Below are positions 2,196 through 39,096 of a stretch of 39,625 nt of DNA, piece by piece. A model generated the notes under the pieces. It had not been told where the DNA came from. It saw nothing but the letters and a program-made list of their open reading frames with translations, and did no database searches. Made by a program: the position numbers and the translations under genes. The DNA is from an uncultured Methanospirillum sp. (GTDB lineage: Archaea > Halobacteriota > Methanomicrobia > Methanomicrobiales > Methanospirillaceae), in contig CAZWTX010000025.1 in NCBI GenBank assembly GCA_964637135.1, positions 1-39,625 of the forward strand, written 5' to 3'. Every line of letters starts with the position of its first letter. The stretch's first letter is position 1.

Positions 2196-2406
2196 GCCAA
2201 TTGTCAAAAAAAGGATAGGATTTCTCCTTTCTGTGTAAGGAGAAATTCAAAGGCTTTTTAGAGACTAGTTATTCTTCCCCGGTCATTCCCGATGCAATTT
2301 GTCACAACAATTCCTTGCGAGGACATCATCATCGGAAACAAACCGGACCATGTCTATCATACGACCGGGTACCTTTACCAGTTATTTTAAGAAATGCCCC
2401 TCGATA

Positions 2407-2796
2407 TCAGACCTTGACCCGTCCCGTTTCCCGGAAGACCTCGTCTGCCGCAAACAATGCATTCAGCGTCGCCGGGAACCCGGCATAGGCACTCATCGTG
2501 TTGATCACCGTCAGGATCTCATCGGGAGTCAGGCCGACATGCAGGCCGGCATGGATATGCACCTTGAGCTGGGGGATAGCATACCCGAGGGCGGTCAGGG
2601 CAGCGATGACCGCAACCTCCCGGGTCTTGTTATCGATAGCCGGCAGGGATCCGATCTCACCATAACTCTCGACGAGGTATCGTGCCATGAACGGTGATAT
2701 CCGGTTCAGCCGTTCATACACCTGTTCCCCGGCCTCACCATCTATCTCTTTCAGTTTCTCCATGCCGATGCTGAAACGATCACATTCTTCCTGCAT
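2407..2796 (-). CDS. Carboxymuconolactone decarboxylase (CMD/AhpD-like) family protein
   Basis: KTREVAVIAALTALG...QLKVHIHAGLHVGLT.DEI...YAGFPA pattern typical of CMD proteins; 129 aa. Confidence 0.88.
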   Translation of the reverse strand: MQEECDRFSIGMEKLKEIDGEAGEQVYERLNRISPFMARYLVESYGEIGSLPAIDNKTREVAVIAALTALGYAIPQLKVHIHAGLHVGLTPDEILTVINTMSAYAGFPATLNALFAADEVFRETGRVKV

Positions 2797-2830
2797 AGAT
2801 CAGCATGAGGTGTTCAGGGGTAAATAGTTT

Positions 2831-2845
2831 GTTAGATCTAACTAA
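2831..2845. promoter_or_regulatory. Palindromic candidate repressor site upstream of the CMD gene
   Basis: GTTAGATCTAAC (2831-2842) is a perfect palindrome in an AT-rich patch about 35 nt upstream of the CMD start codon. Confidence 0.45.
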
Positions 2846-2944
2846 TTGCTTTCGCTCCCGGATGACCGGGAGTCAGCCGGTCCCGTCACAGGGGATGGTT
2901 CCAGCGATATTGCCTCCAGTCTGCTTCAGATCATCCCGTCCAGA

Positions 2945-3574
2945 TCATCCGGCAAGATAGGAGAGATCATTGATCTTCTTCACGATCACGGCTCCCCCTG
3001 GACTGGTGACCAGTAGAGAAACTCCTCCCGGCAGGCCGATAAACTTAATCCGGTCCATCGATTCGATGCCAACGCCGATAAGGACCGACAGGATCAGGCC
3101 GATCGTACCGCCGTGGGTGACAATGATGAGATTGTGATCCCGGATAAGACTAATCTGTTCGAGAAACGGGTTGAGCCGGTTAAAATGGTCCCTTTTCTAT
3201 TCTGCATCAGGTAGACACCGGTAATCGATTACCGAAACATTTGTTGTCTGTTCTGCCTGGTGTTCTCTCAGCCAGGTGACTGGTTTGCCGGTAGCACTCC
3301 CAAGATGACTCTCCCGGAGTGCATGGCATGGTTCCGGTTTGACATGAAGTGATGCTGCAATTGGTTCAGCGGTCTGTCGGGCACGGAGGAGATCAGAGGT
3401 GAAGAGCCTGACTGATCTCCCCGTGAACTCCCTGCCGATCGCCCGGGCAATGGCACCCGCCTGTTCCAGGCCGGTACTGGTCAGTTCCCAGTCAGTCCAT
3501 CCCCCGATCATGCCGTTAGTGTGATGCATTGACTGGGTATGCTGGATCAGAACGATATGCTGCATAAATGGCAT
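2945..3574 (-). pseudogene. Histidine phosphatase (phosphoglycerate mutase superfamily) gene interrupted by one in-frame TAG at 3199-3197
   Basis: N-part has IQHTQS (RHG-equivalent), TSDLLRARQTA and LRE. After the TAG the same frame continues (KRDHFNRLNPFLEQ...NLIIVTHGGTI...KKINDLSYLAG) to TGA at 2947-2945 and contains the second catalytic His (THGG). Confidence 0.85.
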
Positions 3575-7293: not shown

Positions 7294-9552
7294 TCACTCA
7301 TCGCCCCGGTCTTCCTTCACCTGGAACCGGTTCATCTCTGTGTTGAGTTCTCCGGCGACCGAACTGACAGAAGAGATGACCTTGACAACCTGCGAAACCG
7401 AGTCTGACATCTCTGCAGTGATCGTTGCCGATCTCTCTGCCTGTCCGGTAGTCTGGCGGATACTGGTGAGAATCTCGTTGATAATTGCCGTGATCTCCTC
7501 CACGGCTGCTGCCTGTTCTTCGGAAGATGCAGCCACGTCGGCAATCTTCCGGCTGATATCCTCAACTGAGGTGACGATCTCTTTGAACACTGCGAGCGTG
7601 TCAGAGACTGATTCGATACCTCCCTTCACCTGCCGGTTTGCCTCATCCATCACCTGTGCCGCATTTTCCGACTGCTTGTCAAGGACTGAGATCATCTCCC
7701 CGATGTTCTCAGCCGAGACCCGTGACTGGGCGGCAAGTTCCTTGACCTCTCCGGCAACAACCGCAAATCCAAGTCCTGCATCCCCTGCCCGGGCTGCCTC
7801 GATGGCAGCGTTCAGGGCGAGCAGGTTGGTCTGGTCGGCAATATCGGTTATGATCGTGACAATATTACCAATCTCACGCATCTGATCCCGTATTACCTGG
7901 ATCAGCCGGTTCAGGTCCCCGGCTGAATGGTTAATCCCGGCCATTCCCATCTCAGCCGTTCTTGCGAGCTCTTCTCCTTTTGAAGAGAGGGTATTTGTTT
8001 CAATAGCAAGAGAGGATACCTGCTCGGCCTTCACCGAAATGTCGCTGACGGCAACCGAGAAATCCTCGACTGTCCGGAGTACATCGGCAACGCTCCGCTC
8101 CCCGGTCTTCGAGTTTTTCTCCACGATACGGCTGTTCTCTGCGACTTCTTCGGAGCCGGATGCGATGGCCCGGATACTGGCATCTGCCTCCATGGCCCCG
8201 GAAGAGAGATCATCGACATGCCGCTTGATGGTCAGAACTGTCTGTGATATCTGCTCCCCGACATTGTCCAGTGAGTCCTTCAGGCGGGCGAATTCTCCTT
8301 CTACGGCAAACGATTCATCGAACCGGGATACAAATGAGTTATCTGCGAATTTCCCGGAGAGCCTGATTGCTTCGTTGATCGGATATACAATGGCATCGAG
8401 GAGCTCGTTAACCTGGACGATGATCTTCCTGAATTCGCCCTGGTATCGTTCGGGATCAGCCCTCGCGGAGAGTTTTCCTTCTGTTGCCATCGAGGTGAGG
8501 TCGGTGATATCCTTTGTCATCTCGGCAATACTGGTCCGCATCGATACCATCGCATTACCGAGGATATCTCTCTCGCTCATCACCGGGATGTCAACCGTCA
8601 GGTTCCCCCTCGCGATTTCGGATGCAGCTTCCGCTTTTCCTGACAGGGACTCCTGCATATCTCCGAATGCCTGGTTCAGGTCGTTTATTTCGATGACATC
8701 AGACTGTACCGGTTCTATCCTGATTGTCTCCCCCCTGCTCACCTGCCCTGCGAACGCGGTGATCCGCTGGATGGGGTTGCTTATCGAACGGGCGAAAAGG
8801 AATCCTGTCCCGAATACCACAAGAGCCGTTATAATGAAACAGACGAGGATCAGGGTCTCGACCATGGCGGTCCGTTCCCTGATTACCGTCGTGGTCTGGT
8901 TGATATTATCATTGATCTGTTGTTCGGTCGTCTTGACCGGGGCGGAAAATTCATCGATATACGTGGTTGCCCCAATCCGCAGAGTAATCCCGTCAGCGGT
9001 TTTTACACTCGTACAGGTGTAATAACCGAATTTATCCCGCATTACGCCGTCGGCATCCTCCCAGGGGTAATACCCCGATGAATCCTGGTTGTTCCCTCCT
9101 TTCACGATGATACTGTAAAACTCGGGATTGCTCGTCTCCATTGTGTGATAATCGGTTCCCACATTCTTGGCATTCTTATGGAACCGGTTGATCAGGGTTG
9201 CACTATCCATGGCAGTCGTGTACCCGGTCGTTCCGACCGACTGGACAATAATTTCCTGGAATTTGGGATCCTTCTGGAGATCGGCAATGGTCATGCCCGG
9301 ATGGGCAGAGAGGTAGATATCAACCTGCTTCTTCACATCGGTGGCAATTCTTTTGATCATCTCCTCTCCAAGCCCGTTGAGGGCAGTAGTAGAACTCTGC
9401 AGGGCCCCCTCCCCGACGAGCCGGGTCTGTTCGGTTGTCAGCGTTCCGAGTTTCTGGGTCTCCCAGAATGAGATCATCCCGATGATCCCAAGGGGAACGA
9501 GGGAGATGGCGAGCATAACCACAAGAAGTTTGTTGCGTATCGTCCAATTCAT
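7294..9552 (-). CDS. Methyl-accepting chemotaxis protein (2 TM, extracellular sensor, HAMP domains)
   Basis: [37 protein letters not shown] signalling hairpin; two hydrophobic segments; start at [10 protein letters not shown] preceded by GGAGGA. Confidence 0.95.
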
Positions 9553-9848
9553 AGTATCCTCCAACCCCGGATGGGTACGGCCATTACAGGCCGTCATATG
9601 AGAGACGAAGAGAAATAGTGGATTGTTAGCATAATACACCATAATACTATCTCGTGGATGCGGTCCTGTGCTACCGGACACCACGGGGTGTGCTGAAAAA
9701 CCTGCCTGCGTCCCGGAGGGGCCCGGGTCAGAAATGGCGGGCTTCGGATGAAACCGGTTCATCCCCGGGAACGTTCTTCTGTATTCATACCGGGCATGCA
9801 GGCCAAATCATTATCAGATCCCGTGTGAATACTCCGCACAGATGCAAT

Positions 9849-19252: not shown

Positions 19253-20632
19253 TTATTCCACTAAAACCCCGTACGCCCCGGTCCCGATCCACCAGTCCGG
19301 GCCTGCAGACCTCACATACATGAGTTTCGGCTCTTCTTTCCCGGTATCGGTACGGGTATCGACGAAGGACCCGTAAAAGAATCCCCCGCCTTCCCTGGCC
19401 AGGTCGATTGCCTGCATTGTCGTCATCGCCCCGTATGAATCGGTATAATCCCAGATATTCTCCCCGATCATCTCTTTCATGTAGGGATCGGCAAGAAGAA
19501 CCCCGTCATTACCGCTTGCCCAGATCCAGAGATCCCCGTGCGAGAACTGCCCTTCCGGAGCATTGATCTCATCAAACAGGGCATCCCGTCCTTTTTCATG
19601 AGAATACGCGATAGCGTCATCGACAAGCGCTGCCATTTCAGCCAGGGAATTTGTCCGTGTCCTGATCCCGGTTAGATCCCCGGTCGTCAGGGCGAGGTAA
19701 TCAGGATTGAGAACCGAAGATCCGATCCACCAGGTATCATCCACCGGGAGCGAATAGGTGAGGGACGGGATATAGATGGTGCCATTATCGGTGACGAGTT
19801 TCCTGACGCTGTGGGTATATCCTCCCCCCTGTGATGAAGTTATCATGGCGTTTCCGACAGTACTCACGCCGTTGATGTCACGATAATAGCGGAGGGAGAG
19901 ATTCTTTGCCCAGGGATTCATGGGATGGGCAAGAGAGATTCCGTTGAAATCATACGCGAAAATATACTGATTTCCCCGGACAAAGGACCCCTTTGGATCG
20001 GAAAATGTCTCAATTGCCCGGTCTTTGCCGACATCTCCGGCATATACTGCTGCCTCATCGACAAATGCGGCAAGGTCAGCGGCACTCATCGGCTGGATGG
20101 TTTCATTCGTCTTCTTGATCTCAATCGTTCTCGGTATGGCGATCCCGGCCCCGATCCACCAGGTGTCATCCACCGGGAGGACAACCGAGTTTTTCTCGGA
20201 CTCATTCATGTTATCGGCTGGATTCGGGTAGAAATAGGTCACCATCCCGCCCCCGTGCATTGCAGCATCGATCATCTCCTTCACAATGGGGATGTGGTAC
20301 CGATCTGTCAGGTTCATCCGGTTCGCTCCGATCTCTTCCGGTTCATACGGAAGAGCCAGGACCGTTCCGTTATAGTCATATGCGAAGATGTAATGGTTTT
20401 CAGAGGAGTATGGTCCGTCAGGATCGTTGAAGGTGGCAATTGCCGCCTCCTTTGTGCTCTCTCTTGCGTAATCAACCGCCTGACTGACATATCGTGCTAC
20501 ATCCGCAGGTGTTTTCAGGCCAGCCTGATCAGCCGGATATACTGACTGAATGGAACTGTCCCCTGCACAGATGGCGGGGATAAGACAGATGGTCAACATG
20601 AAGATGAAAATAACGGGGAGTCGGATTTCCAT
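19253..20632 (-). CDS. Secreted protein of three tandem single-Cache domains
   Basis: Signal peptide; three repeats with YIFAYDYNG/YIFAYDFNG/WIWASGNDG and PVDDTWWIG/PVDDTWWIG/GPDWWIG; no cytoplasmic output domain. Confidence 0.85.
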   Translation of the reverse strand: MEIRLPVIFIFMLTICLIPAICAGDSSIQSVYPADQAGLKTPADVARYVSQAVDYARESTKEAAIATFNDPDGPYSSENHYIFAYDYNGTVLALPYEPEEIGANRMNLTDRYHIPIVKEMIDAAMHGGGMVTYFYPNPADNMNESEKNSVVLPVDDTWWIGAGIAIPRTIEIKKTNETIQPMSAADLAAFVDEAAVYAGDVGKDRAIETFSDPKGSFVRGNQYIFAYDFNGISLAHPMNPWAKNLSLRYYRDINGVSTVGNAMITSSQGGGYTHSVRKLVTDNGTIYIPSLTYSLPVDDTWWIGSSVLNPDYLALTTGDLTGIRTRTNSLAEMAALVDDAIAYSHEKGRDALFDEINAPEGQFSHGDLWIWASGNDGVLLADPYMKEMIGENIWDYTDSYGAMTTMQAIDLAREGGGFFYGSFVDTRTDTGKEEPKLMYVRSAGPDWWIGTGAYGVLVE

Positions 20633-21113: not shown

Positions 21114-21321
21114 CCGGAATCCATCCCGCAGTTTTTTAACCCTCCCCGAACAGTGGGTTCACTCACTTCAGCAAACCCGGATTTTTAGAGATGAATTTCT
21201 CCGGATGAACCGGAAAGGGAGTGAGTAATCCCTATTCCTTCCCGTTCCGGCATGGGGGCAATACATAAAAGCATCCGGTACAATAATGGATTACTCATAC
21301 GCATTTTTGAGGGGTGAAGGA

Positions 21322-23643
21322 ATGAATATGGGCAATTATATGAATCGATCAGCGAAAGAAGCGGAAAACGCCGAATCGTTGACCCGGGAGGATCTGATCA
21401 TGCGGGTCAGGGATCTTGAGGCAGAACAACAACTACTCATGGAAAGGGTCTCTCTCCTCGCAGCCGAGGCACAGAGGGGTTCATTTACCGACCGCCTTTC
21501 CGGTGAACAGTTCGGGGAAGGGATTCTGCCACTCGTGAACACTATGAACGGATTGCTTGATCTCGTAAATGACCGGGTTGCCTGGTATGAATCCATTCTT
21601 GACGCGGTTCCGTTCCCGATCCATGTCACTGACATGGACATGAAATGGACGTACATGAACCTTGCATTCGAAGCAGTCCTTCTGAACAACAAAGTTATCA
21701 CCGACCGGAAATCGGCGTACGGGCTTGCATGCCATAATGCCGGGGCGACGATCTGCCAGACCAGTAACTGCGGTATCGAGCAGCTCCGTACCAGGGGGGT
21801 TACGGAGAGTTATTTCGAATGGCAGGGAATGAACGGGAAACAGGTCACTAAACCGGTGATGAATGCCCGGGGCGAACAGATCGGGTATGTGGAGACGGTC
21901 CAGGATCTTACCGAACAGCTCAACCAGATCGCGTATTACGAATCCATCCTTGACGCCGTCCCGATGGGGATCACCGTCACCGATCTCGACGAAAAGTGGA
22001 CTTTCGTGAATAAGACCGTTGAGAACATGTTAAACCGGTCACGCAAGGAACTGCTTGGCCATCCCTGCAGGGAATGGGGAGCAAACATCTGTAACACCGA
22101 GAACTGCGGGATCAAACGACTCCGGAAAGGATTCACGAATACTACTTTTGAACAGGATGGTGGTTTTTACAAGGTTGATTGTGCCTATATCCCCGATTCA
22201 AGGGGAGAAACCGTCGGCCATGTAGAGGTTGTCGGGGACATCACCGAGATAACGAAGGTGAGTATGTACCTCCGCAAAGAAGTGGACCGGCTTGCAGATA
22301 ACCTTCACAAGATTGCAAAAGGGGATATCTCCTGTGATTACCAGGTTTCCCCGTCAGACGAGCATACCCGTGATGTGGCATCCCTCTTCATCGCCATCAA
22401 TGAAAGCCTGAAGGAGGCGACTGGGGCGATATCAATGATGATCGAGGATGTGGAACTGCTCTCTCAGGCTGCCACCAACGGGAAACTGGGTACCCGGGCC
22501 GATGGCTCCCGTCACCAGGGGGAATTCCGGAAAATCGTTGAAGAAATAAATGATACCCTTGACAGCGTAATCGTTCCGGTCAGGGAAGCCCTCCGCATAT
22601 CCAAGGAGTATGCAGCCTACAACTTTGTTGCCCGGGTGGATCCGAAACTGGATATCGCCGGTGACTGGCTTGAGTTCAGGGATGCCCTTAACAACATCGG
22701 GATACAGATCGGGGCCACCGTGAAACTGATCACCGATCAACTCGCCGCCCTGTCATCGAATGCCGGGGAAGCGACTGCCAGTATCGGTGAGGTGCTCACT
22801 GGAGCCCAACAGATTGCAAAGAATGCCGGAGACGTAAGCATCAATTCCGAAGCCGGTGGGGATGGGATAAGCCAGATTCTCAAGGCAATGGAGGACCTCA
22901 ACATTACGGTCGGGGAGGTCTCCCAGCGGGCTGAACAGGTCTCTTCGTTTGCTATGAAGGCAAACGACTATTCCAAGCAGGGAATCAGCCTCGCCAGGCA
23001 ATCTGAGAATTCGATGACCGAGATCACCCGGTCTACCACCGAGGTCGGAGAGATCGTCAGGGAGATCAACCTCCAGATGGATGATATCGGCAAGATCGTC
23101 AGGCTGATCTCTGATATTGCGAGCCAGACCAACCTGCTTGCCCTCAACGCTGCTATCGAAGCGGCCCGGGCGGGAGAAGCAGGCAGGGGATTTGCAGTTG
23201 TTGCGGCTGAGGTAAAGTCTCTTGCCCAGGATTCCCGTCAGTCTGCAGAAAACATCGCGGACATGATCGCACGGCTCCAGGACAAGACACGGCGGGCAAA
23301 TGAAGCGATGACCGCGGCAGGCCAGACGGTGATCGAAGGAAACAAGTCCCTCGAAGAGACGCTCGGTGCTTTCACCCAGATTGCCTCCTCCATCGAGGAT
23401 ATCACCCGCAATGCGATGGACGTCGCCTCTGCCTCGGAAGAACAGGCAGCATCGGTCGAAGAAGTGACCGCGAGCGTAAACGAGGTTTCCGGGTTGATCC
23501 AGAATACCACCAGGGATGCCAGTGATGCGGCAGCGGCGACAGAAGAAGCATCTGCTGCAATTGACCAGATCTCCGGGATGATCGCCGAGGTAAGTACTAT
23601 TGTTGATTCGGTCTCTCGTGAAATGGCACGGTTCGTGGTCTGA
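21322..23643 (+). CDS. Cytoplasmic methyl-accepting chemotaxis protein with two PAS domains
   Basis: Two [18 protein letters not shown] PAS repeats, HAMP-like segments, [37 protein letters not shown]; no TM segment; start after GGGGTGA RBS. Confidence 0.95.
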
Positions 23644-32798: not shown

Positions 32799-33118
32799 GC
32801 AACGGATTTGATCTCCTGGTAAGCCTCGGAACGAGGAATACCAGTACCCTGTCAGAGATAGCGATGGAACTGGGTATCCCGGTGAATGCCGTCCAGGGAT
32901 GGATTGATCTCCTCTGCTGCACCGGGTACCTGGAACGAAGTGGATCAGAAGATCACCCCTGTTCCTGCTCCTCATGCCCGGCCGGGACATCCTGCGTCTC
33001 CTGCCGGTGTGCTTCATCACGGCTGCCATCACCCGATACCCGGTTTGAACTGACCGACCGGGGCCGGGAGTATGTCCGACGGACCATGAGCACACCTCCG
33101 ATCTCTTCATTCTCTTAA
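32795..33118 (+). CDS. FeoC-like winged-helix protein with Cys cluster
   Basis: TLSEIAMELGIPVNAVQGWIDLL...GYL followed by CSCSSCPAGTSCVSC and FELTDRG; last gene of the feo operon. Confidence 0.75.
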   Translation: MSNGFDLLVSLGTRNTSTLSEIAMELGIPVNAVQGWIDLLCCTGYLERSGSEDHPCSCSSCPAGTSCVSCRCASSRLPSPDTRFELTDRGREYVRRTMSTPPISSFS

Positions 33119-33279
33119 CCCCCTGATCTCCAGGCGCCGTATTATCGATCCGTATGGGATATCGCTGAATAAAGGATGTATCGACTACCATTATCCACTT
33201 CATGGGGTGGTTCAGCAGGAACGTAGGATTCAATAACAAAGTATATCATGAGTCCCCTTTATATACTGAATTCAGTGAA

Positions 33280-34071
33280 ATGTCCACTCTCCTTCCTACT
33301 GTCACGTTCTCGGAAAAAAGAAAAAATCTTCTGATATTATTGCGTGATGGCCCTCTTGGGTGGGATGAGATAAAGATCCGGCTGGATGTCACCGCATCCG
33401 GCATGCTTCCCCAGATAAAGATTCTTGAGGAACAGGGGCTCATCCGGAAAGAAAACAAGGAGTACTCTCTCACTGAAATTGGTTATCTGGTCGTACATTA
33501 TCTCTCTCCCCTGAGCCGGACACTTGCCGTTCTTGATCGTCATAAAAAGTTCTGGCAGGAACATGATCTCAATGCTATTCCCCGGGAATTTCTCTACCGG
33601 ATTGGGGATCTGGATAATCCCTGGATCATCGAGACCAGTGTGGAAGAGAGCTTTGAACCGCACAAACAGTTTCTTGAGATTATTCTGCGATCATCGTCCG
33701 TTTTTGGGATATCACCGATCGTCCATCCGATCTATCCGCAGTTTTTTCTTACATTGGCCCGCGAAGGGCGGAAAGTGGGCCTGATTCTCACAGAGAGTGC
33801 ATTCCAGAAGATAAAAAAAGAATATGCAGATATGCTTCTTGAAGGACTCCGGTACCCGGGCTCATCTCTGGCGATTTGCAGAGATGACTTCAGGCTGGCA
33901 TTTGTGGTAACCGACAAATACTTCTCCCTCAGCCTGTTCTTAAAAAACGGGATTTTTGACTCGAAGAGGGATATTGTCACTGATGCCCCCTCTGGCATTA
34001 TGTACGGGCAGGATCTCTATGCGTTTTATCTGCAGCGATCCCGTCTTGTTACCCCGGATGGATCATACTGA
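33280..34071 (+). CDS. Winged-helix regulator with DUF1724-like C-terminal domain (COG4742-like, methanogen type)
   Basis: FSEKRKNLLILLRDGP...MLPQIKILEEQGLI...YSLTEIG, FWQEHDLNAIP...RIGDL, VVTDKYFSLSLFLKNGIFD. Confidence 0.85.
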   Translation: MSTLLPTVTFSEKRKNLLILLRDGPLGWDEIKIRLDVTASGMLPQIKILEEQGLIRKENKEYSLTEIGYLVVHYLSPLSRTLAVLDRHKKFWQEHDLNAIPREFLYRIGDLDNPWIIETSVEESFEPHKQFLEIILRSSSVFGISPIVHPIYPQFFLTLAREGRKVGLILTESAFQKIKKEYADMLLEGLRYPGSSLAICRDDFRLAFVVTDKYFSLSLFLKNGIFDSKRDIVTDAPSGIMYGQDLYAFYLQRSRLVTPDGSY

Positions 34072-34897
34072 CTATAACCTGAACCGGTGACTCGCCATCG
34101 ATAGCCAAAACCCGGAACCATCTTTTTAAACCCGCTTTATTGGTCTCAAATAGCGGGGAATACCAGATAATCACCCCCCCGCCGGATATCAGGCTGTATA
34201 TAACAAAGAAGGAAAAAAAGGAAATAATCCCGGTTATCATCCCCGCTATTAGAATCAGGTGTTGTATGAGCAGAATGGTAAATAGAACCTCTTTCATTCT
34301 TCTGATCCCCCAGACCGCGGGTAATGTCCTGATTCCTGCAGCAAGATCCCCTTCAATATCCTTGCAGTCATAGATTGTGGAGTTAATAAAGAGTTTCATG
34401 CCATAAAAAAGCGAGATAAGAATCGCTGCAGACAGATTTCCAGTCGTTGAGATGATCAGACCTATCGTTCCTCCCCAGGTGATCCCGATGATCAGATTCT
34501 TTCCCCCCATCCCGGTCTTGAGTTTGATCTTCTTTGTACCGAGTGAGACCCCACGGGAGTAGATGAATCCCGTAATGAATGGAAAGATGGGTATCCAGAA
34601 GAGGGCATGTGAGAAGAACAGATACGTTCCCGCAGCAACTGCTATGATCGTCGCCAAAAGTCCATATGTGCGGTCGATATCTGAAAACGTGAGTGAATTC
34701 ACGTGGTCCTCGTGACTCTTCAGGGATCGATCGAGCGTGTAGGTTGCATAGATAATTAGTGATGCGCCGGATATGAGGGTAGGATCCGGTGCTGTCCCGA
34801 TGAGGATAAATGCAAGATAAAGGCGCAATCCTCCTGATAATCCGACAATGGTGGCTGAACTGAGTAATGTAAGCGAAGTGATTCCTCTGGTTGACAC
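34049..34897 (-). CDS. UbiA prenyltransferase family membrane protein
   Basis: Multiple TM segments; YTLDR....ED..N and IYDCKDIEGDLAAGIRTLP Asp-rich motifs; GTG start. Confidence 0.85.
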   Translation of the reverse strand: MSTRGITSLTLLSSATIVGLSGGLRLYLAFILIGTAPDPTLISGASLIIYATYTLDRSLKSHEDHVNSLTFSDIDRTYGLLATIIAVAAGTYLFFSHALFWIPIFPFITGFIYSRGVSLGTKKIKLKTGMGGKNLIIGITWGGTIGLIISTTGNLSAAILISLFYGMKLFINSTIYDCKDIEGDLAAGIRTLPAVWGIRRMKEVLFTILLIQHLILIAGMITGIISFFSFFVIYSLISGGGVIIWYSPLFETNKAGLKRWFRVLAIDGESPVQVIVSMIHPG

Positions 34898-35139
34898 ATG
34901 GTAAAAGACAGGAGAGAGTACAAAATTTTTAACCCATGCCTTTTTTTTAATGACATTAAAAAAACAGATGAAATTGTATTATTATAAAAAAGAATGAAAA
35001 TCCACCCCGTTTGAAATAAATCCTCGATTTGGTAATTACCTCTTCACCTGACCTCCGACGATCCAAAAACCCTGAATTGTAGGATATCAGGATCTCATGC
35101 CCATTTTTCTCAGAATGAAACCCGGGTTGAGGTGGTATC

Positions 35140-36942
35140 ATGAAAAAAACACTATCGGGGAGATCGAATACACGGTATCCCCAGGAGTATCAACAAGACT
35201 GCCAGCCTATGCTGGTTGGTCCGAGTCCTGAACTGATGGAAAAGATCAAGGCCGAAATGGCGAGTATGCGCAAGAAAAGTGATGGTGTCATCGCCCAGAT
35301 GCTTACCGTCAGGGAACGTTCATACCCCGGCCTGAATGATGGTCTGATCTATCCGGGAGATATGTATCCTCTTGGTACATCTGCTGCTCCGGTGCGTTCA
35401 GCCGCTCTTGATCGTTCCCCTCTTAAAGGAACGATTCGTGCCATCGTTGTCCTTGTTCAGTTTAGTGACAAGAAGATGACCAAGACAAAGAAGCATTATG
35501 AAGATCTCTTCTTCTCGACCGGTATTATTAAAACCGGCAGCGTCAGGGAGTATTACCGGGAAGTCTCCAACAACATCGTTGATATCGTCGGAGAGGTCGT
35601 CGGTCCGTACACCCTGCCAAAAAAAATATCCGAGTATGCTCATGGAGAATCCGGTCTCGGAAAAATCCTCCCCAATGCCCGGACAATGGCACGGCATGCA
35701 GTGGAGATGGCAGACAAGGATGTGAACTTCTCCCAGTACGATAATGATAATGACGGATTTGTCGATGCATTCATTGTCATCCACGCCGGTCCCGGGGCAG
35801 AGGTAACCGGGAATGCGAATGATATCTGGTCACATAAATCCGTTATTGAGGGCTCTGCTTATTCTGCTGACGGGAAGAAGGTCTATGCGTACAACACCGT
35901 TCCTGAAGATGCAAAGATAGGAGTCTGCTGCCATGAACTTGGCCATCTTTTATTCGGCTTTCCCGATCTCTACGATACCGATTATTCCAGCGAGGGGGTT
36001 GGTAACTGGTGCCTCATGTCAGGCGGGAACTGGAACGGGTCAGGAGATACGCCGGCACATCCCTCTGCCTGGTGCAAGGCAAACCAGGAATGGGTGACGG
36101 TGGTTAATCCGAAGACCAACGGGAAGGTGAGCCTTGATGCCGTCGAGACAAGTCACACCGTGTACCGCCTCGCAAAGGACGGTGCCTCGGGAAAGGAATA
36201 TTTCCTCCTTGAAAACCGGCAGAAGACGCTTTTTGACAGTAAACTTCCGGGTGCCGGGCTTCTTATCTGGCATATCGATGAGAACATTGCGAACAACTCT
36301 GATGAAAACCATCCCAAAGTTGCCCTCGAACAGGCTGACGGGAAGAATGATCTCCTGAAAGGAACCAACCGGGGTGACGGGGGAGATCCATACCCGGGAA
36401 CCGCAAATAACATCTCGTTCACCAAGACGACGACTCCGGGTTCAAAAACCTATGGCGGGGTTGATACCTGTATATCAGTGAATAATATCTCCCCGTCCGG
36501 TCCGACGATGACGATGAATGTCAGTGTATCCTGTATCGAGATCAAGTTCCTTAAAGAGAACCTGAAGGATACCCTGAAAGAATATAAGACTGACAAAAAT
36601 ATAAAAACCGAAATAAAAGAAGTTCTGAAGGATAACAAAAATCTCAAGGATATCAAGGATTCAAAAAATAAGCCCTACGGTGAATGGGGGAAATTGGCAG
36701 ATAAATGGGAGTATGACTTTGATCGGCGGCCACTCGAGTATAATCTTGAATCCCGCCTGGAAATGCTTGAAAGCAGGCTTGAATCGATCGAACCGTTCAT
36801 CAATGCAGCCCTCCGGCCGGATCTCAGGGAAGGGGCACTCCTCAACGAGGAAGACCTGAATATGCTCTCCGCCAGTATCCAGGGAGAAGCTACCCGCTCA
36901 AAGCGCCGGTTCCTGGATACGAATCTCCGTCCGTTCCGGTAA
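35140..36942 (+). CDS. M6 family (immune inhibitor A-like) zinc metalloprotease with Lys/Asp/Glu-repeat C-terminal tail
   Basis: IVVLVQFSD, GSVREYYREVS, DNDNDGFVD..IVIHAGPG, IWSH, HELGHLLFGFPDLYD (from 35932), WCLMSGG, EYFLLENR, GLLIWHID; no hydrophobic signal peptide; GAGGTG RBS. Confidence 0.93.
   Translation: MKKTLSGRSNTRYPQEYQQDCQPMLVGPSPELMEKIKAEMASMRKKSDGVIAQMLTVRERSYPGLNDGLIYPGDMYPLGTSAAPVRSAALDRSPLKGTIRAIVVLVQFSDKKMTKTKKHYEDLFFSTGIIKTGSVREYYREVSNNIVDIVGEVVGPYTLPKKISEYAHGESGLGKILPNARTMARHAVEMADKDVNFSQYDNDNDGFVDAFIVIHAGPGAEVTGNANDIWSHKSVIEGSAYSADGKKVYAYNTVPEDAKIGVCCHELGHLLFGFPDLYDTDYSSEGVGNWCLMSGGNWNGSGDTPAHPSAWCKANQEWVTVVNPKTNGKVSLDAVETSHTVYRLAKDGASGKEYFLLENRQKTLFDSKLPGAGLLIWHIDENIANNSDENHPKVALEQADGKNDLLKGTNRGDGGDPYPGTANNISFTKTTTPGSKTYGGVDTCISVNNISPSGPTMTMNVSVSCIEIKFLKENLKDTLKEYKTDKNIKTEIKEVLKDNKNLKDIKDSKNKPYGEWGKLADKWEYDFDRRPLEYNLESRLEMLESRLESIEPFINAALRPDLREGALLNEEDLNMLSASIQGEATRSKRRFLDTNLRPFR
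36541..36672 (+). repeat. Low-complexity periodic (L/I)K(D/E) peptide repeat within the M6 protease tail
   Basis: IKFLKENLKDTLKEYKTDKNIKTEIKEVLKDNKNLKDIKDSKNK: 14 Lys and 9 Asp/Glu in 44 residues, Lys mostly every 3-4 residues; A-rich DNA. Confidence 0.8.
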
Positions 36943-36965
36943 CCGGATGATACCTGGATCAATCC

Positions 36966-37835
36966 ATGGACTTCCTTATTTTTGCCCGGACTGATGATGA
37001 GACGGCAATCAGGGTTTATTCCAGGGTCAGGGAGATAATTGACAGTGCATCGGTTCGTTTCATTTCTGATGATGAGCTCTCACATGCCCTTCACTGGTCA
37101 CACCGTGTGAATTCAGGCGGGGCAGAGACTGATATCCTCCTCGCCAGTGGTCAGGAGATCTGTTCCTCTGCTATCGGTCTCGTCTTCAACCGGCTCATTT
37201 ATCCAAATCTTGAATATTTTAGCGGTTCTTCTGAACAAACAAAAGAGTATGCCCACCAGGAGATGTATGCCCTCTGGTTCAGCTGGCTTGAGAGCTTTCC
37301 CTGCCCGGTTGTCAATCCCCCGACAGTACGTGGTTTAAGCTGTCAAAGCAGGAGTCTTGCCGAATGGCTCTCCCTTGCCGGCCAGGCAGGACTTCCTACG
37401 GATACATACCGGTTTACCAGTTCGTCCAGGTTTTACAATCCTGGTGACGGGTTCCCGCACGTTCCGGGAAGCGGGTATGGGGTTCATACACCCTGGGATC
37501 TTGTGCGGATACCGCATCCTGAGATTGGGATCGGACCCCGGATATACGTGAACCGGACCGTTCCTGCCATTAAAAGTGCCCTTATAGTAGGAGAGCATGT
37601 GATGGATCCCTTTGAGGGTCTCTTCCACGAGGAATATCAACGGCTCCAAAAGCTCATCGGGTGCGATATCTTCGAGGTAATCTTCTCACATGCCGATGGG
37701 GAAAACCAGCCGCCGGATGTACGGGATGACGGGTGGTTTGTCACCGGTGTCAATACATTCCCGTTCTGGAGGGATGATGCCTCGATCTCCCTGATGGCGG
37801 GCTACCTTGCCGATCGGTGGAGGTGTTGCTCCTGA
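36966..37835 (+). CDS. Degenerate ATP-grasp-like protein
   Basis: LVFNRL...YAHQEMYALWFSWLESFPCPVVNPP...WLSLAGQAGLPT resembles the N-terminal half of RimK/MvdC-type ATP-grasp proteins; C-terminus has GVNTFP where active enzymes have EVNP. Confidence 0.65.
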   Translation: MDFLIFARTDDETAIRVYSRVREIIDSASVRFISDDELSHALHWSHRVNSGGAETDILLASGQEICSSAIGLVFNRLIYPNLEYFSGSSEQTKEYAHQEMYALWFSWLESFPCPVVNPPTVRGLSCQSRSLAEWLSLAGQAGLPTDTYRFTSSSRFYNPGDGFPHVPGSGYGVHTPWDLVRIPHPEIGIGPRIYVNRTVPAIKSALIVGEHVMDPFEGLFHEEYQRLQKLIGCDIFEVIFSHADGENQPPDVRDDGWFVTGVNTFPFWRDDASISLMAGYLADRWRCCS

Positions 37836-38764
37836 TTCTTCTCTGCGGGATTCCGTCAGAACCTCCTCTCCGGCTGATCATGGAGGCGGCAGAGGAAAAA
37901 GGAACGGATGTTGTTCTCTTTAACCAGCGTCAAGATCCTGATGCCAATCTTACGTTCAGGGTTGAATCAGGCAGGGTGAACGGTAGTTTCAGGGTGAACG
38001 GGCAGGACCATGATCTTGCCTCCTTCACTGGGATATATATGCGGATGATGGACTACCAGAATCTTCCGGGAAACCGGCCTCACCGGATGGGGTATCTCGA
38101 CCAGGATCGGGTTACTCATTCGGCCATGCTTCATACTGCTCTCATTGAATGGTTTGAGATGAGTGAGTGCAGGGTGATGAACCGGGTGAGTGCTATGAAC
38201 TCGAACGGGTCAAAACCATACCAGGCCCAGTTCATCATCCGTGAAGGATTTTTAACTCCGAAAACCCTGGTTAGCAACAATCCGGAGGAGGTTTTGGCCT
38301 TTGCGAAGTCCTGTGGTACTTGTATCTATAAGTCCATCAGCGGTGAGCGATCGATTGTCAAAACCCTTGATGAGGAGAAGAAAAAGGATATCGACGCGGT
38401 CAGGTACCTCCCGACCCAGTTCCAGGAATGGATTCCCGGAACTGATATCCGCGTGCATGTTGCCGGCCAGGAAGTTTTCGCAACCGAGATCTGTTCTGAT
38501 GCAATTGATTACCGGTATGCCCACCAGGATCAGCTGGAGATCGAGATGAGACCTTTTGAGCTTCCCGGTGAGATCAGATCCCGGTGTCTTTCCCTCTCTG
38601 CACGGCTTAACCTGCCGCTCTGTGGGATTGATCTGAGGAGAACTCCGTCAGACGAGTACTATTGCTTTGAAGTGAATCCTTCTCCGGCGTACAGTTATTA
38701 CCAGGAGAATACCGGCCAGGATATTGCCTCTGCGATCCTGGCGTACCTCGGGGGGAATACCTGA
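37832..38764 (+). CDS. ATP-grasp ligase, RimK/graspetide-synthetase-like
   Basis: VMNR...SNGSKPYQ, TPKTLVSN, IYKSISG, FQEWIPGTDIRVHV, DYRY, CGIDL, CFEVNPSP. Start uncertain (GTG 37817/37823, TTG 37826 or CTG 37832). Confidence 0.9.
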   Translation: MILLCGIPSEPPLRLIMEAAEEKGTDVVLFNQRQDPDANLTFRVESGRVNGSFRVNGQDHDLASFTGIYMRMMDYQNLPGNRPHRMGYLDQDRVTHSAMLHTALIEWFEMSECRVMNRVSAMNSNGSKPYQAQFIIREGFLTPKTLVSNNPEEVLAFAKSCGTCIYKSISGERSIVKTLDEEKKKDIDAVRYLPTQFQEWIPGTDIRVHVAGQEVFATEICSDAIDYRYAHQDQLEIEMRPFELPGEIRSRCLSLSARLNLPLCGIDLRRTPSDEYYCFEVNPSPAYSYYQENTGQDIASAILAYLGGNT

Positions 38765-38790
38765 TATTCTCCTGCGTCGGAGTCACTGGT

Positions 38791-39096
38791 ATGTCAGTTC
38801 AGATCATTGAAAACTGGTCTGATATCCGGGGAACAATCCGTGAAATCAGACCCTCTCCCGCAGGTGAGGCGTTCTTCGAGATAACTATTGTAGTGGACAC
38901 TGTCTCCGAAACAGATGGCTTCCCCTCGCTCGTTCTCTTCCACCCGGGAGAGACGATTCCGGTTCAGGGAAGAAAAGACACCCCCGGCTTTGAAAAGATC
39001 TCTAACGGGGCGAAAATCAGTGGCAGAATCAGAATGGCCGGGTCCGGCCGGTATTTCTTCCATCCTGAACTCGTCAGGATTCTTGAACCGGATTAA
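38791..39096 (+). CDS. Small hypothetical beta-rich protein (possible OB-like fold), last gene of the protease/ATP-grasp operon
   Basis: 101 aa, 26 nt after the ligase stop on the same strand; alternating hydrophobic strand pattern. Confidence 0.65.
   Translation: MSVQIIENWSDIRGTIREIRPSPAGEAFFEITIVVDTVSETDGFPSLVLFHPGETIPVQGRKDTPGFEKISNGAKISGRIRMAGSGRYFFHPELVRILEPD

Follow-up and report, generated by a model that had tools for sequence, protein, structure and literature searches.

A graspetide group 32-type cassette in a Methanospirillum contig, probably acquired horizontally, with a protease tail as the predicted substrate of its ATP-grasp ligase

The stretch of DNA analyzed here (the window, 39,625 nucleotides) is the whole of contig CAZWTX010000025.1 from an uncultured Methanospirillum sp. 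(GenBank assembly GCA_964637135.1), whose 2.8-Mb genome is 97.7% complete and 0.7% contaminated. Positions 35140-39096 contain a cassette of four plus-strand open reading frames (ORFs), which encode an M6 zinc protease with a long C-terminal tail (ORF1), a degenerate ATP-grasp protein (ORF2), an intact ATP-grasp ligase (ORF3) and a small beta-barrel protein (ORF4). Sequence comparison confirms the feature and makes it a new archaeal member, probably gained by horizontal transfer, of a class of graspetide loci that is catalogued and uncharacterized. The reading that we favor, with moderate confidence, is that the ligase of this group 32 cassette joins lysine to aspartate and glutamate side chains within the tail of the protease, which would be recognized through a conserved F-I-x4-R-P-D-L motif.

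The four genes are co-oriented and tightly spaced, with a gap of 23 nt, then a 19-nt overlap and then a gap of 26 nt between successive ORFs. An initial annotation of the window had described this arrangement at the same coordinates, and had named an M6 metalloprotease without signal peptide, a degenerate ATP-grasp-like protein, an intact ATP-grasp ligase with DYR at the position of a D(W/F)R motif and a small beta protein; all of these were borne out by the ORF listing and the analyses given below. Dozens of unrelated contigs show this gene order as well, which rules out a chance arrangement.

The evidence for the tail as substrate comes from a comparison of related loci (numbered with L in the following). 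A scan of genome contigs with a single protein as query gave 3 loci, and an alignment of the ligase was used as query for the survey of metagenomes, from which the best 80 of 551 relatives were taken. A search for the motif [FILVMYW][IVLF]-x4-5-R-P-[DEN]-[LIMVF] located 15-47 residues from the C-terminus of an ORF covered the window and 50 fetched loci, 51 in all, each with 1100 bp or more of sequence upstream of its ligase. A plus-strand ORF with the motif, ending at most 1500 bp upstream of the ligase, was found in 48/51 loci, and the motif lies C-terminal to repeats in which Lys directly precedes Asp or Glu (K[DE] repeats); this repeat-plus-motif module is a candidate precursor. The co-occurrence of the ligase with K/D/E-repeat proteins, on which the initial annotation had made its proposal of the tail as likely substrate depend, is thus seen in the same 48 loci. 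In 53 of the 55 loci with at least 800 bp upstream, the degenerate paralogue is placed after the tail gene and before the ligase. The neighborhood survey found no further conserved gene across loci.

What precedes the tail differs between loci. A domain scan of 37 of the 48 motif ORFs (short contig-end fragments, one duplicate and the window were left out) gave 22 with an M6 domain, 8 with an S8 subtilase domain, 1 with a trypsin-like Nal1_C domain and 6 that are domain-free, one of the last (L081) with sub-threshold Nal1 matches. Four of the six (L010, L011, L053 and L066) are stand-alone repeat-plus-motif proteins with stop-to-stop frames of 170-252 amino acids (aa), and a protein of this kind next to the ligase pair is what would be expected of a substrate module. 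Two alphaproteobacterial metagenome-assembled genomes (MAGs) carry such a stand-alone repeat protein (170 and 231 aa stop-to-stop), followed by the degenerate paralogue and the ligase; the repeat proteins are built of KEHKDHKIEKLEKNE-type units and end in HFIDPxxRPDLSGGAL. A Chitinophagaceae MAG has the same four genes as the window. In the ligase tree the N-terminal domain of the tail ORF switches several times while the tail is retained.

A single-sequence query with the tail (residues 530-600) found only its own protein among 39 candidates, and a tail profile was used instead to search 5.8 billion proteins (longer ones). It gave 40 matches, comprising 11 M6 (the window's own protein included), 16 S8, 5 Nal1_C and 8 domain-free proteins; two of five domain-free matches that were rescanned had sub-threshold Nal1/trypsin matches, and no non-protease Pfam domain was found among the 40. 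In the window's own genome the single match of the tail profile was ORF1. The idea that the protease tail is the likely substrate is supported by this comparison because the motif module is linked to the ligase pair across protease families, and the stand-alone modules and the retention of lysine described below point the same way.

The repeats keep lysine itself and not charge alone. Across 45 distinct repeat regions (3383 residues, expectations taken from shuffles) there are 948 K against 965 D+E, roughly 1:1. Lysine stands directly before an acid 620 times against 272 expected (z 31), and KK occurs 17 times against 258 expected. Acid-to-K pairs at i+4, which are typical of single alpha-helix domains, are depleted (158 observed, 261 expected), which argues against a domain of that type. 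In the 25 loci with a guanine plus cytosine (GC) content of at least 0.60, the K:R ratio is 483:93 in the repeats versus 383:771 in the rest of the same proteins. From these counts, which come from related loci and so are not independent trials, lysine itself, rather than mere positive charge, appears to be retained against mutational pressure in step with the acids, and this matched retention fits lysine as a nucleophile paired with a carboxylate.

The protease itself matches TIGR03296 over residues 103-378 (E 5e-74; 249.7 bits, the cut-off being 110.8) as well as Pfam Peptidase_M6, and with its HExxH motif belongs to the M6 (immune inhibitor A-like) family. Its N-terminus is not hydrophobic (maximum Kyte-Doolittle mean 0.18 in a 15-residue window over the first 75 aa), and no membrane-like stretch is present in the whole protein (maximum 0.97 in a 19-residue window). 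The catalytic domain of M6-type proteins is preceded by an N-terminal C-x-V-A-P-S-P-E-L segment (residues 20-32; 35140-35300 in the window), in which P30 is invariant and P28 at least 90% conserved in the M6-type alignment; the segment could be a pro-segment or a latency motif of these predicted-cytoplasmic proteases.

The tail of ORF1 comprises the last 135 residues (466-600). A 64-aa K[DE] repeat (466-529; 16 K, 1 R, 15 D+E and 3 T) is followed by the amphipathic helix LESRLEMLESRLE, by PFINAALRPDL and by 38 more residues. The tail had been annotated as a Lys/Asp/Glu/Thr repeat; lysine, aspartate and glutamate stand, and threonine falls away, given three in 64 residues and no place as a repeat feature in aligned relatives. 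An alignment of 45 tails shows no variation at F, R and P of the F-I-x4-R-P-D-L motif and conservation of at least 90% at I, D and L. Beyond the motif, most M6-type relatives have the C-terminus AKRxFDTKP, a KxxxD pattern, where the window has KRRFLD; the K588/D593 pattern is missing from stand-alone and short-tailed forms. S8-type tails end in DAKxxKDxKDxEK. Past the motif both types carry a second, subtype-specific Lys/Asp pattern, which the stand-alone forms lack and which could provide extra cross-link or cleavage sites.

The ligase ORF3 groups with graspetide synthetases. K172, D272, E285 and N287 are invariant in 33/33 sequences, and in a PDB profile search DYR (231-233) falls at the position of DFR in PsnB and of DWR in CdnC and MdnC, giving an intact ATP/Mg2+ site together with a D(F/W)R-type motif; the DFR motif has been called critical for synthetase activity (Carter et al., PMC13097080). 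In the NCBIfam scan ORF3 scored 112.3 bits with TIGR04187, 88.7 with MvdD, 78.4 with MvdC, 72.9 with rimK_fam and 46.8 with MptN, and the alignments to the first three models span nearly its full length. The profile search against the PDB gave PsnB at E 6.7e-36 (full length), CdnC at 9e-28, MdnC at 5e-25 and RimK at 2e-10; the five graspetide synthetases found (PsnB, CdnC, MdnC, AMdnB and MdnB) range from 1e-21 to 7e-36. Over its full length ORF3 is thus closer to graspetide synthetases than to other ATP-grasp families, and the comparison with RimK and graspetide models, which had been suggested as a check, places it with the graspetide type. ORF2 had no family match in Pfam or NCBIfam scans. 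Aligned to the ligase family with hhalign (probability 97.5%, E 5e-12, 249 aligned columns), it lacks the central ATP-binding stretch, and just 4 positions are invariant among 34 homologues; by this comparison it is a dead ATP-grasp.

The class that the cassette matches was described by one bioinformatic survey and probably by a second. Carter, Ramesh, Saad, Mubarik and Mitchell (2026; PMC13097080) define a graspetide group 32 with "diverse families of neighboring proteases", for which their RODEO precursor list contains K/E-repeat peptides ending in HFIxxxLRPDL, homologues of ORF4 and evident noise, and which includes entries labelled Thermoproteota archaeon and Lutacidiplasmatales archaeon. 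Makarova et al. (2022; PMC8939145) describe ligases of branches 7 and 8 that are tied to peptidases of unrelated families with precursors not detected, branch 8 "typically" with a truncated, inactive ATP-grasp, and they propose that the peptidases supply peptides from other proteins. The window shares with group 32 and branch 8, as they are described there, a TIGR04187-like ligase, a truncated inactive ATP-grasp and adjoining peptidases of unrelated families (M6, S8 and Nal1 across the related loci); the K/E-repeat peptides with the HFIxxxLRPDL end and the ORF4 homologues in the RODEO list are further points in common. The small protein of L056 matches Cellulomonas entries of the group 32 table, and Cellulomonas is found in branch 8 as well (PMC13097080, PMC8939145). 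On this similarity of content the cassette is assigned to graspetide group 32, a catalogued group that is probably the same as branch 8. Both matches rest on the descriptions of the classes: none of six close-homologue accessions is among the entries listed from the table of Carter et al., and no branch 8 locus is among the locus entries listed from Makarova et al. One Makarova locus considered as a match was rejected as an unrelated graspimiditide cluster. The remark in the initial annotation that no characterized system of this architecture was known in methanogens therefore needs to be divided, since the class is already catalogued and it is correct that it has no characterized member.

What differs from the two surveys is the location of the repeat. 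Their descriptions of the class have "neighboring" proteases or no precursor, and a repeat as the proteases' own C-terminal tail is not part of them (PMC13097080, PMC8939145). The general graspetide leader signature Phhx(1,2)h was scored by Makarova et al. within the N-terminal 30 residues of candidate precursors (PMC8939145), so that a motif in the C-terminal tail of a large peptidase would be missed. P-F-I-x3-L of the tail resembles this signature. A full-text literature search found no title or abstract with a protease-fused precursor for the class; the supplementary figures of Carter et al., which may bear on this, were outside its scope.

In the mechanism that we propose, the segment formed by the amphipathic helix and the F-I-x4-R-P-D-L motif would dock on the ligase and/or the dead paralogue, by analogy with the leaders on MdnC and PsnB, and would act C-terminal to the core, as a "follower". 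A graspetide leader moved to the C-terminal side of its core has been described as still functional, about 2-fold slower. The ligase would use ATP to phosphorylate Asp/Glu carboxylates of the K[DE] repeats, and attack by neighboring Lys amines would produce a ladder of isopeptide (omega-amide) bonds with 18 Da lost for each, for which the window tail would offer 16 Lys and 15 acids. The fused protease might then trim or release the stapled tail, which is the most speculative step, and the OB-like ORF4 would serve the M6 domain and not the ligase. A wider proposition, which we regard as possible and a little short of probable, is that graspetide chemistry is here applied to a whole enzyme: the ligase and its dead twin would staple the tail of a cytoplasmic protease under the direction of a follower, three unrelated protease families would have hitched to the module independently, the protease would be either a self-processing precursor of a ribosomally made, post-translationally modified peptide (RiPP) or an enzyme switched by stapling, and the module would have crossed into a methanogen.

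Parts of this proposal have partial precedents. The plesiocin synthetase PsnB (PDB 7DRM), the solved structure closest to ORF3 by profile (E 6.7e-36), acts on a multi-core precursor, where it forms Thr-Glu ester rings on TTxxxxEE cores directed by an N-terminal leader; in the window, in contrast, only Lys and acids would make up the cores, and these are followed on their C-terminal side by the predicted recognition motif. Borosin-type methyltransferase-core fusions are full-size enzymes with the modified peptide at their own C-terminus, but there the fused enzyme is the modifier itself, whereas in the window the fused enzyme is the protease and the ligase is separate. CorA/CorB of graspetide group 15 have a TIGR04187-type ligase that makes five Lys-to-Asp KxxxD (i to i+4) isopeptides on a 22-kDa repeat precursor, as described by Carter et al. 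(PMC13097080), and the M6-type tails end in the KxxxD-like AKRxFD. CorA differs in being a stand-alone precursor with an N-terminal helical domain, in a system that includes a 2-oxoglutarate oxygenase and a beta-lactamase, is described without a dead ATP-grasp paralogue or fused protease and is restricted to Corallococcus (PMC13097080). MyxF, which makes myxomiditide, forms lactams in tandem (KxxE)n and belongs to ligase paralogues that cooperate, one of them inactive alone; it is distinguished by a short, microviridin-type peptide that has a leader at its N-terminus and far fewer repeats, by four ligases and by the lack of a protease fusion, according to its description (PMC12848669). In the rosaritide system MirB/MirC a graspetide ligase requires a co-purifying non-catalytic partner, but MirC is reported as a SurA/PPIase-like (peptidyl-prolyl isomerase-like) chaperone and not a dead ATP-grasp paralogue (PMC13097080).

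Several observations weigh against the tail as substrate or against the assignment of the ligase. The motif is lacking in 3/51 loci (L033, L074 and L082), and L074 and L082 have neither motif nor dead paralogue; in L033 the dead paralogue and the ligase are intact, and upstream of them, at 852-992, the end of the tail survives as a frame-broken remnant ("...AKRLFDTKPSER"), which points to decay of the cassette or else to a mistake in the assembly. The surveyed loci, as the best 80 of 551 relatives, are kin and not independent samples. The repeats are of low complexity, vary in period and length and keep to no fixed register. Their K/D/E enrichment, taken as the highest value in any 30 aa, is weak in some loci, namely L048 (0.33), L049 (0.43) and L046 and L071 (both 0.47). 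The neighborhood survey found no conserved exporter or immunity gene. An AlphaFold2 model of the whole 600-aa ORF1 was poor (mean predicted local distance difference test score, pLDDT, 56, with the tail mostly below 50), so that the placement of the tail in it is uninformative. ORF3 scores below the curated graspetide cut-offs (112.3 against 350 bits for TIGR04187, 88.7 against 475 for MvdD and 78.4 against 425 for MvdC, the last two being the models TIGR04184 and TIGR04185) and therefore lies outside those curated subfamilies, on a separate branch. The class is described in purely bioinformatic terms, without a characterized member, and the "Precursor peptide" column for group 32 includes homologues of ORF4 from Spirosoma, Fibrella, Cellulomonas and others (PMC13097080).

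The alternative that survives best, although we consider it unlikely, is that the tail is a docking or spacer module only, which tethers the protease to the ligase pair, and that the pair modifies peptides cut by the protease from other proteins. The missing register of the repeats, their weak K/D/E enrichment in a few loci and the lack of a confident fold for the tail would all suit such a module, as would the proposal of Makarova et al., who found no precursor and had peptidases supply the peptides (PMC8939145). However, the scoring in that survey was blind to a C-terminal tail motif, stand-alone repeat-plus-motif proteins accompany the ligase pair with no conserved protease in L010, L011, L053 and L066, and a spacer would need neither lysine retained against GC pressure nor a Lys:acid ratio of about 1:1.

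Slightly less likely still is the idea that the ligase forms intermolecular Lys-Asp/Glu bonds, joining tails to each other or to other proteins and giving covalent oligomers or conjugates. Many lysines and acids without fixed register, a whole protein as substrate and the lack of a conserved exporter in the neighborhood survey are all compatible with it, and the spacing of the repeats, with a hydrophobic residue at each third or fourth position and K and E on either side, would also suit the pairing of two tails in a coiled coil. On the other side, the characterized relatives PsnB, CdnC, MdnB/C, CorB and MyxF make intramolecular rings, as far as they are described, and the data point to no specific second partner.

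It is improbable that the ligase is a RimK-like enzyme that extends the tail, or a different protein, with glutamate or other amino acids. ORF3 does match the generic RimK-like ATP-grasp domain of Pfam (32.6 bits, cut-off 21), it has the rimK_fam and MptN scores given above, and its homologues are named "glutathione synthase/RimK-type ligase" in the source databases. The rimK_fam (TIGR00768) score of 72.9 bits is nevertheless under the cut-off of 143.4 and under the scores of all three graspetide models, the five graspetide synthetases exceed RimK by many orders of magnitude in the profile search, and ORF3 can be aligned with graspetide enzymes both in its N-terminal "pre-ATP-grasp" part and at the D(F/W/Y)R motif. 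Very improbable, finally, is that the 101-aa ORF4 is itself the precursor, the role in which RODEO lists such proteins at several group 32 loci (PMC13097080): it is small, last in the operon and has invariant E7 and N8, but it is found in none of the 14 non-M6 typed loci that keep the ligase pair and the tail, it is modelled as a confident compact beta-barrel, unlike a RiPP precursor, and it has apart from E7 no conserved residue of the kinds that would be joined (see below).

The proposed stapling of the protease tail by its neighboring ligase would matter in several ways. The surveys had left the class unresolved, with no detectable precursor in one (Makarova et al., PMC8939145) and a mixed list of predicted precursors next to "neighboring" proteases in the other (Carter et al., PMC13097080), and the comparative data point to the proteases' own tail as the long-missing substrate. 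If this is true, full-size enzymes would join short peptides as targets of side-chain stapling, the ligase would be a natural graspetide ligase directed by a follower, with long and simple K[DE] repeats as its accepted substrate, and useful for protein stapling, and a stapling module could be taken up by an archaeon.

The cassette ligase was found in none of 24 genomes of the same genus. Among 16 genomes of the same order, six had weak ligase matches alone (27-29% identity), and the ligase profile had no match at E <=1e-40 in 400 other genomes of the phylum. The closest ligase homologues are 58% identical, and those that are named come from bacteria (Thioploca, Anaerolineales, Caldilineaceae, Acidobacteriota and others). 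A tree of 38 ligases places the window copy as sister to the metagenome locus L012 (support 99/89), within the M6-type group. This distribution and phylogeny make it likely that the archaeon acquired the cassette horizontally from bacteria. The initial annotation had framed the system as archaeal, and in this it has to be corrected: the cassette is of bacterial type, with no counterpart in the genomes of the genus and phylum counted above, and nests among bacterial and metagenomic homologues. L012 has a caspase-like Peptidase_C14 gene (2320-3180, E 4.9e-28) directly upstream of its M6-tail gene, a further protease next to the cassette.

Neither flank of the cassette could be matched in the 24 congeneric genomes: the UbiA-like/PRK13591-like prenyltransferase gene just upstream had no match there, and the 529 bp downstream had none. 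The insertion site is therefore not definable and the flank looks accessory. All of this end of the contig may form an accessory island. The GC profile of the window showed no clear compositional island at the cassette. The gene of a FilR1-type regulator and the prenyltransferase gene (33000-35140) lie in a stretch of lower GC content, 0.445-0.478. The join between prenyltransferase and cassette is not an artefact of a single-sample assembly, given that error-free contigs from other studies tile it (X11, 34721-35040 and 35039-35289; X3, 34961-35571; X4, 34355-34961) and that a single contig runs across all of it in X1, which may be the source sample. In metatranscriptome X20 four contigs were found, all on the protease gene (35064-36513); such libraries can contain DNA, and the contigs are a weak hint of transcription of that gene. 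Cassette parts that were not covered, and the lack of X20 contigs over the ligase genes, carry no evidential weight.

ORF4 was modelled by AlphaFold2 as an all-beta barrel (mean pLDDT 92.3). Foldseek gave weak OB-fold matches to the model, the best being the C-terminal NTR-type domain of complement C3 (E 4e-4, TMq 0.61), followed by PriB, RecO and CusF, and a search of the ESM Atlas gave only "hypothetical protein" clusters. A hidden Markov model (HMM) found ORF4 in 20/20 M6-type loci with at least 350 bp downstream (L042 typed by its identity to L040), and in 0/7 S8-type, 0/4 stand-alone, 0/1 Nal1 and 0/2 other loci. ORF4 therefore appears to accompany the M6 domain rather than the ligase or the tail. 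A single tree branch (support 90/98) has all M6-type ligases on one side, and the association of ORF4 with M6 may therefore reflect one origin with retention and not repeated gain. E7 and N8 are its only invariant positions, and apart from E7 no Lys, Ser, Thr, Asp or Glu is at least 90% conserved in the family. It may be an inhibitor, chaperone or adaptor of the M6 domain. The NTR-type fold is that of TIMP metalloprotease inhibitors; TIMP-like inhibition of the M6 domain by ORF4 was considered and is kept as no more than a lead, given the weakness of the NTR match and a co-occurrence that may go back to one origin.

The features of the cassette are listed in Table 1. The TATA-like stretch is located about 160 nt upstream of the protease ATG, inside a 242-nt intergenic region.

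Table 1. Features of the cassette and its upstream region (window coordinates); functional roles are predictions.
Feature	Position	Strand	Basis
AT-rich promoter-/TATA-like element	34956..34985	+	Consensus scan, TTAAAA-18-TATTAT; weak, pattern match alone
Shine-Dalgarno-like GAGGTGG	35129..35135	+	Read from sequence; 4 nt before ATG at 35140
ORF1, M6 zinc protease with C-terminal tail, 600 aa, predicted cytoplasmic	35140..36942	+	TIGR03296; no signal-like hydrophobic stretch
M6 catalytic domain, residues 103-378	35446..36273	+	TIGR03296 / Pfam Peptidase_M6
HELGH, residues 265-269	35932-35946	+	HExxH invariant in 17/17 aligned homologues
K[DE] repeat region, residues 466-529, predicted cross-linking core	36535..36726	+	Composition and family-wide statistics; role inferred
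Amphipathic helix LESRLEMLESRLE, residues 536-548, ahead of motif	36745..36783	+	Conserved LEARLxxLE in alignments; AlphaFold2 helical, pLDDT <50
F553-I-x4-R559-P560-D-L562 motif, predicted recognition "follower" for the ATP-grasp pair	36796..36825	+	Conservation, 45 tails
C-terminal K588...D593 (KRRFLD)	36901..36918	+	At least 90% conserved among 17 M6-type proteins
ORF2, degenerate ATP-grasp paralogue, 289 aa, predicted non-catalytic partner	36966..37835	+	hhalign against ligase family
ORF3, graspetide-type ATP-grasp ligase, 315 aa	37817..38764	+	NCBIfam, PDB profile search, conserved residues
ORF4, small OB-like beta-barrel protein, 101 aa, accessory to M6 variant	38791..39096	+	AlphaFold2, Foldseek, HMM co-occurrence

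None of the four cassette proteins matched a defence model in PADLOC. Other genes on the contig encode chemotaxis receptors, a B12-dependent ribonucleotide reductase, FeoB, the FilR1-type regulator and the PRK13591 prenyltransferase. Two large methyl-accepting chemotaxis proteins (7294-9762 and 21286-23643) and a third sensor-like protein (19253-20632) are encoded in the window, and the chemotaxis proteins on the contig suggest that the host is probably motile.

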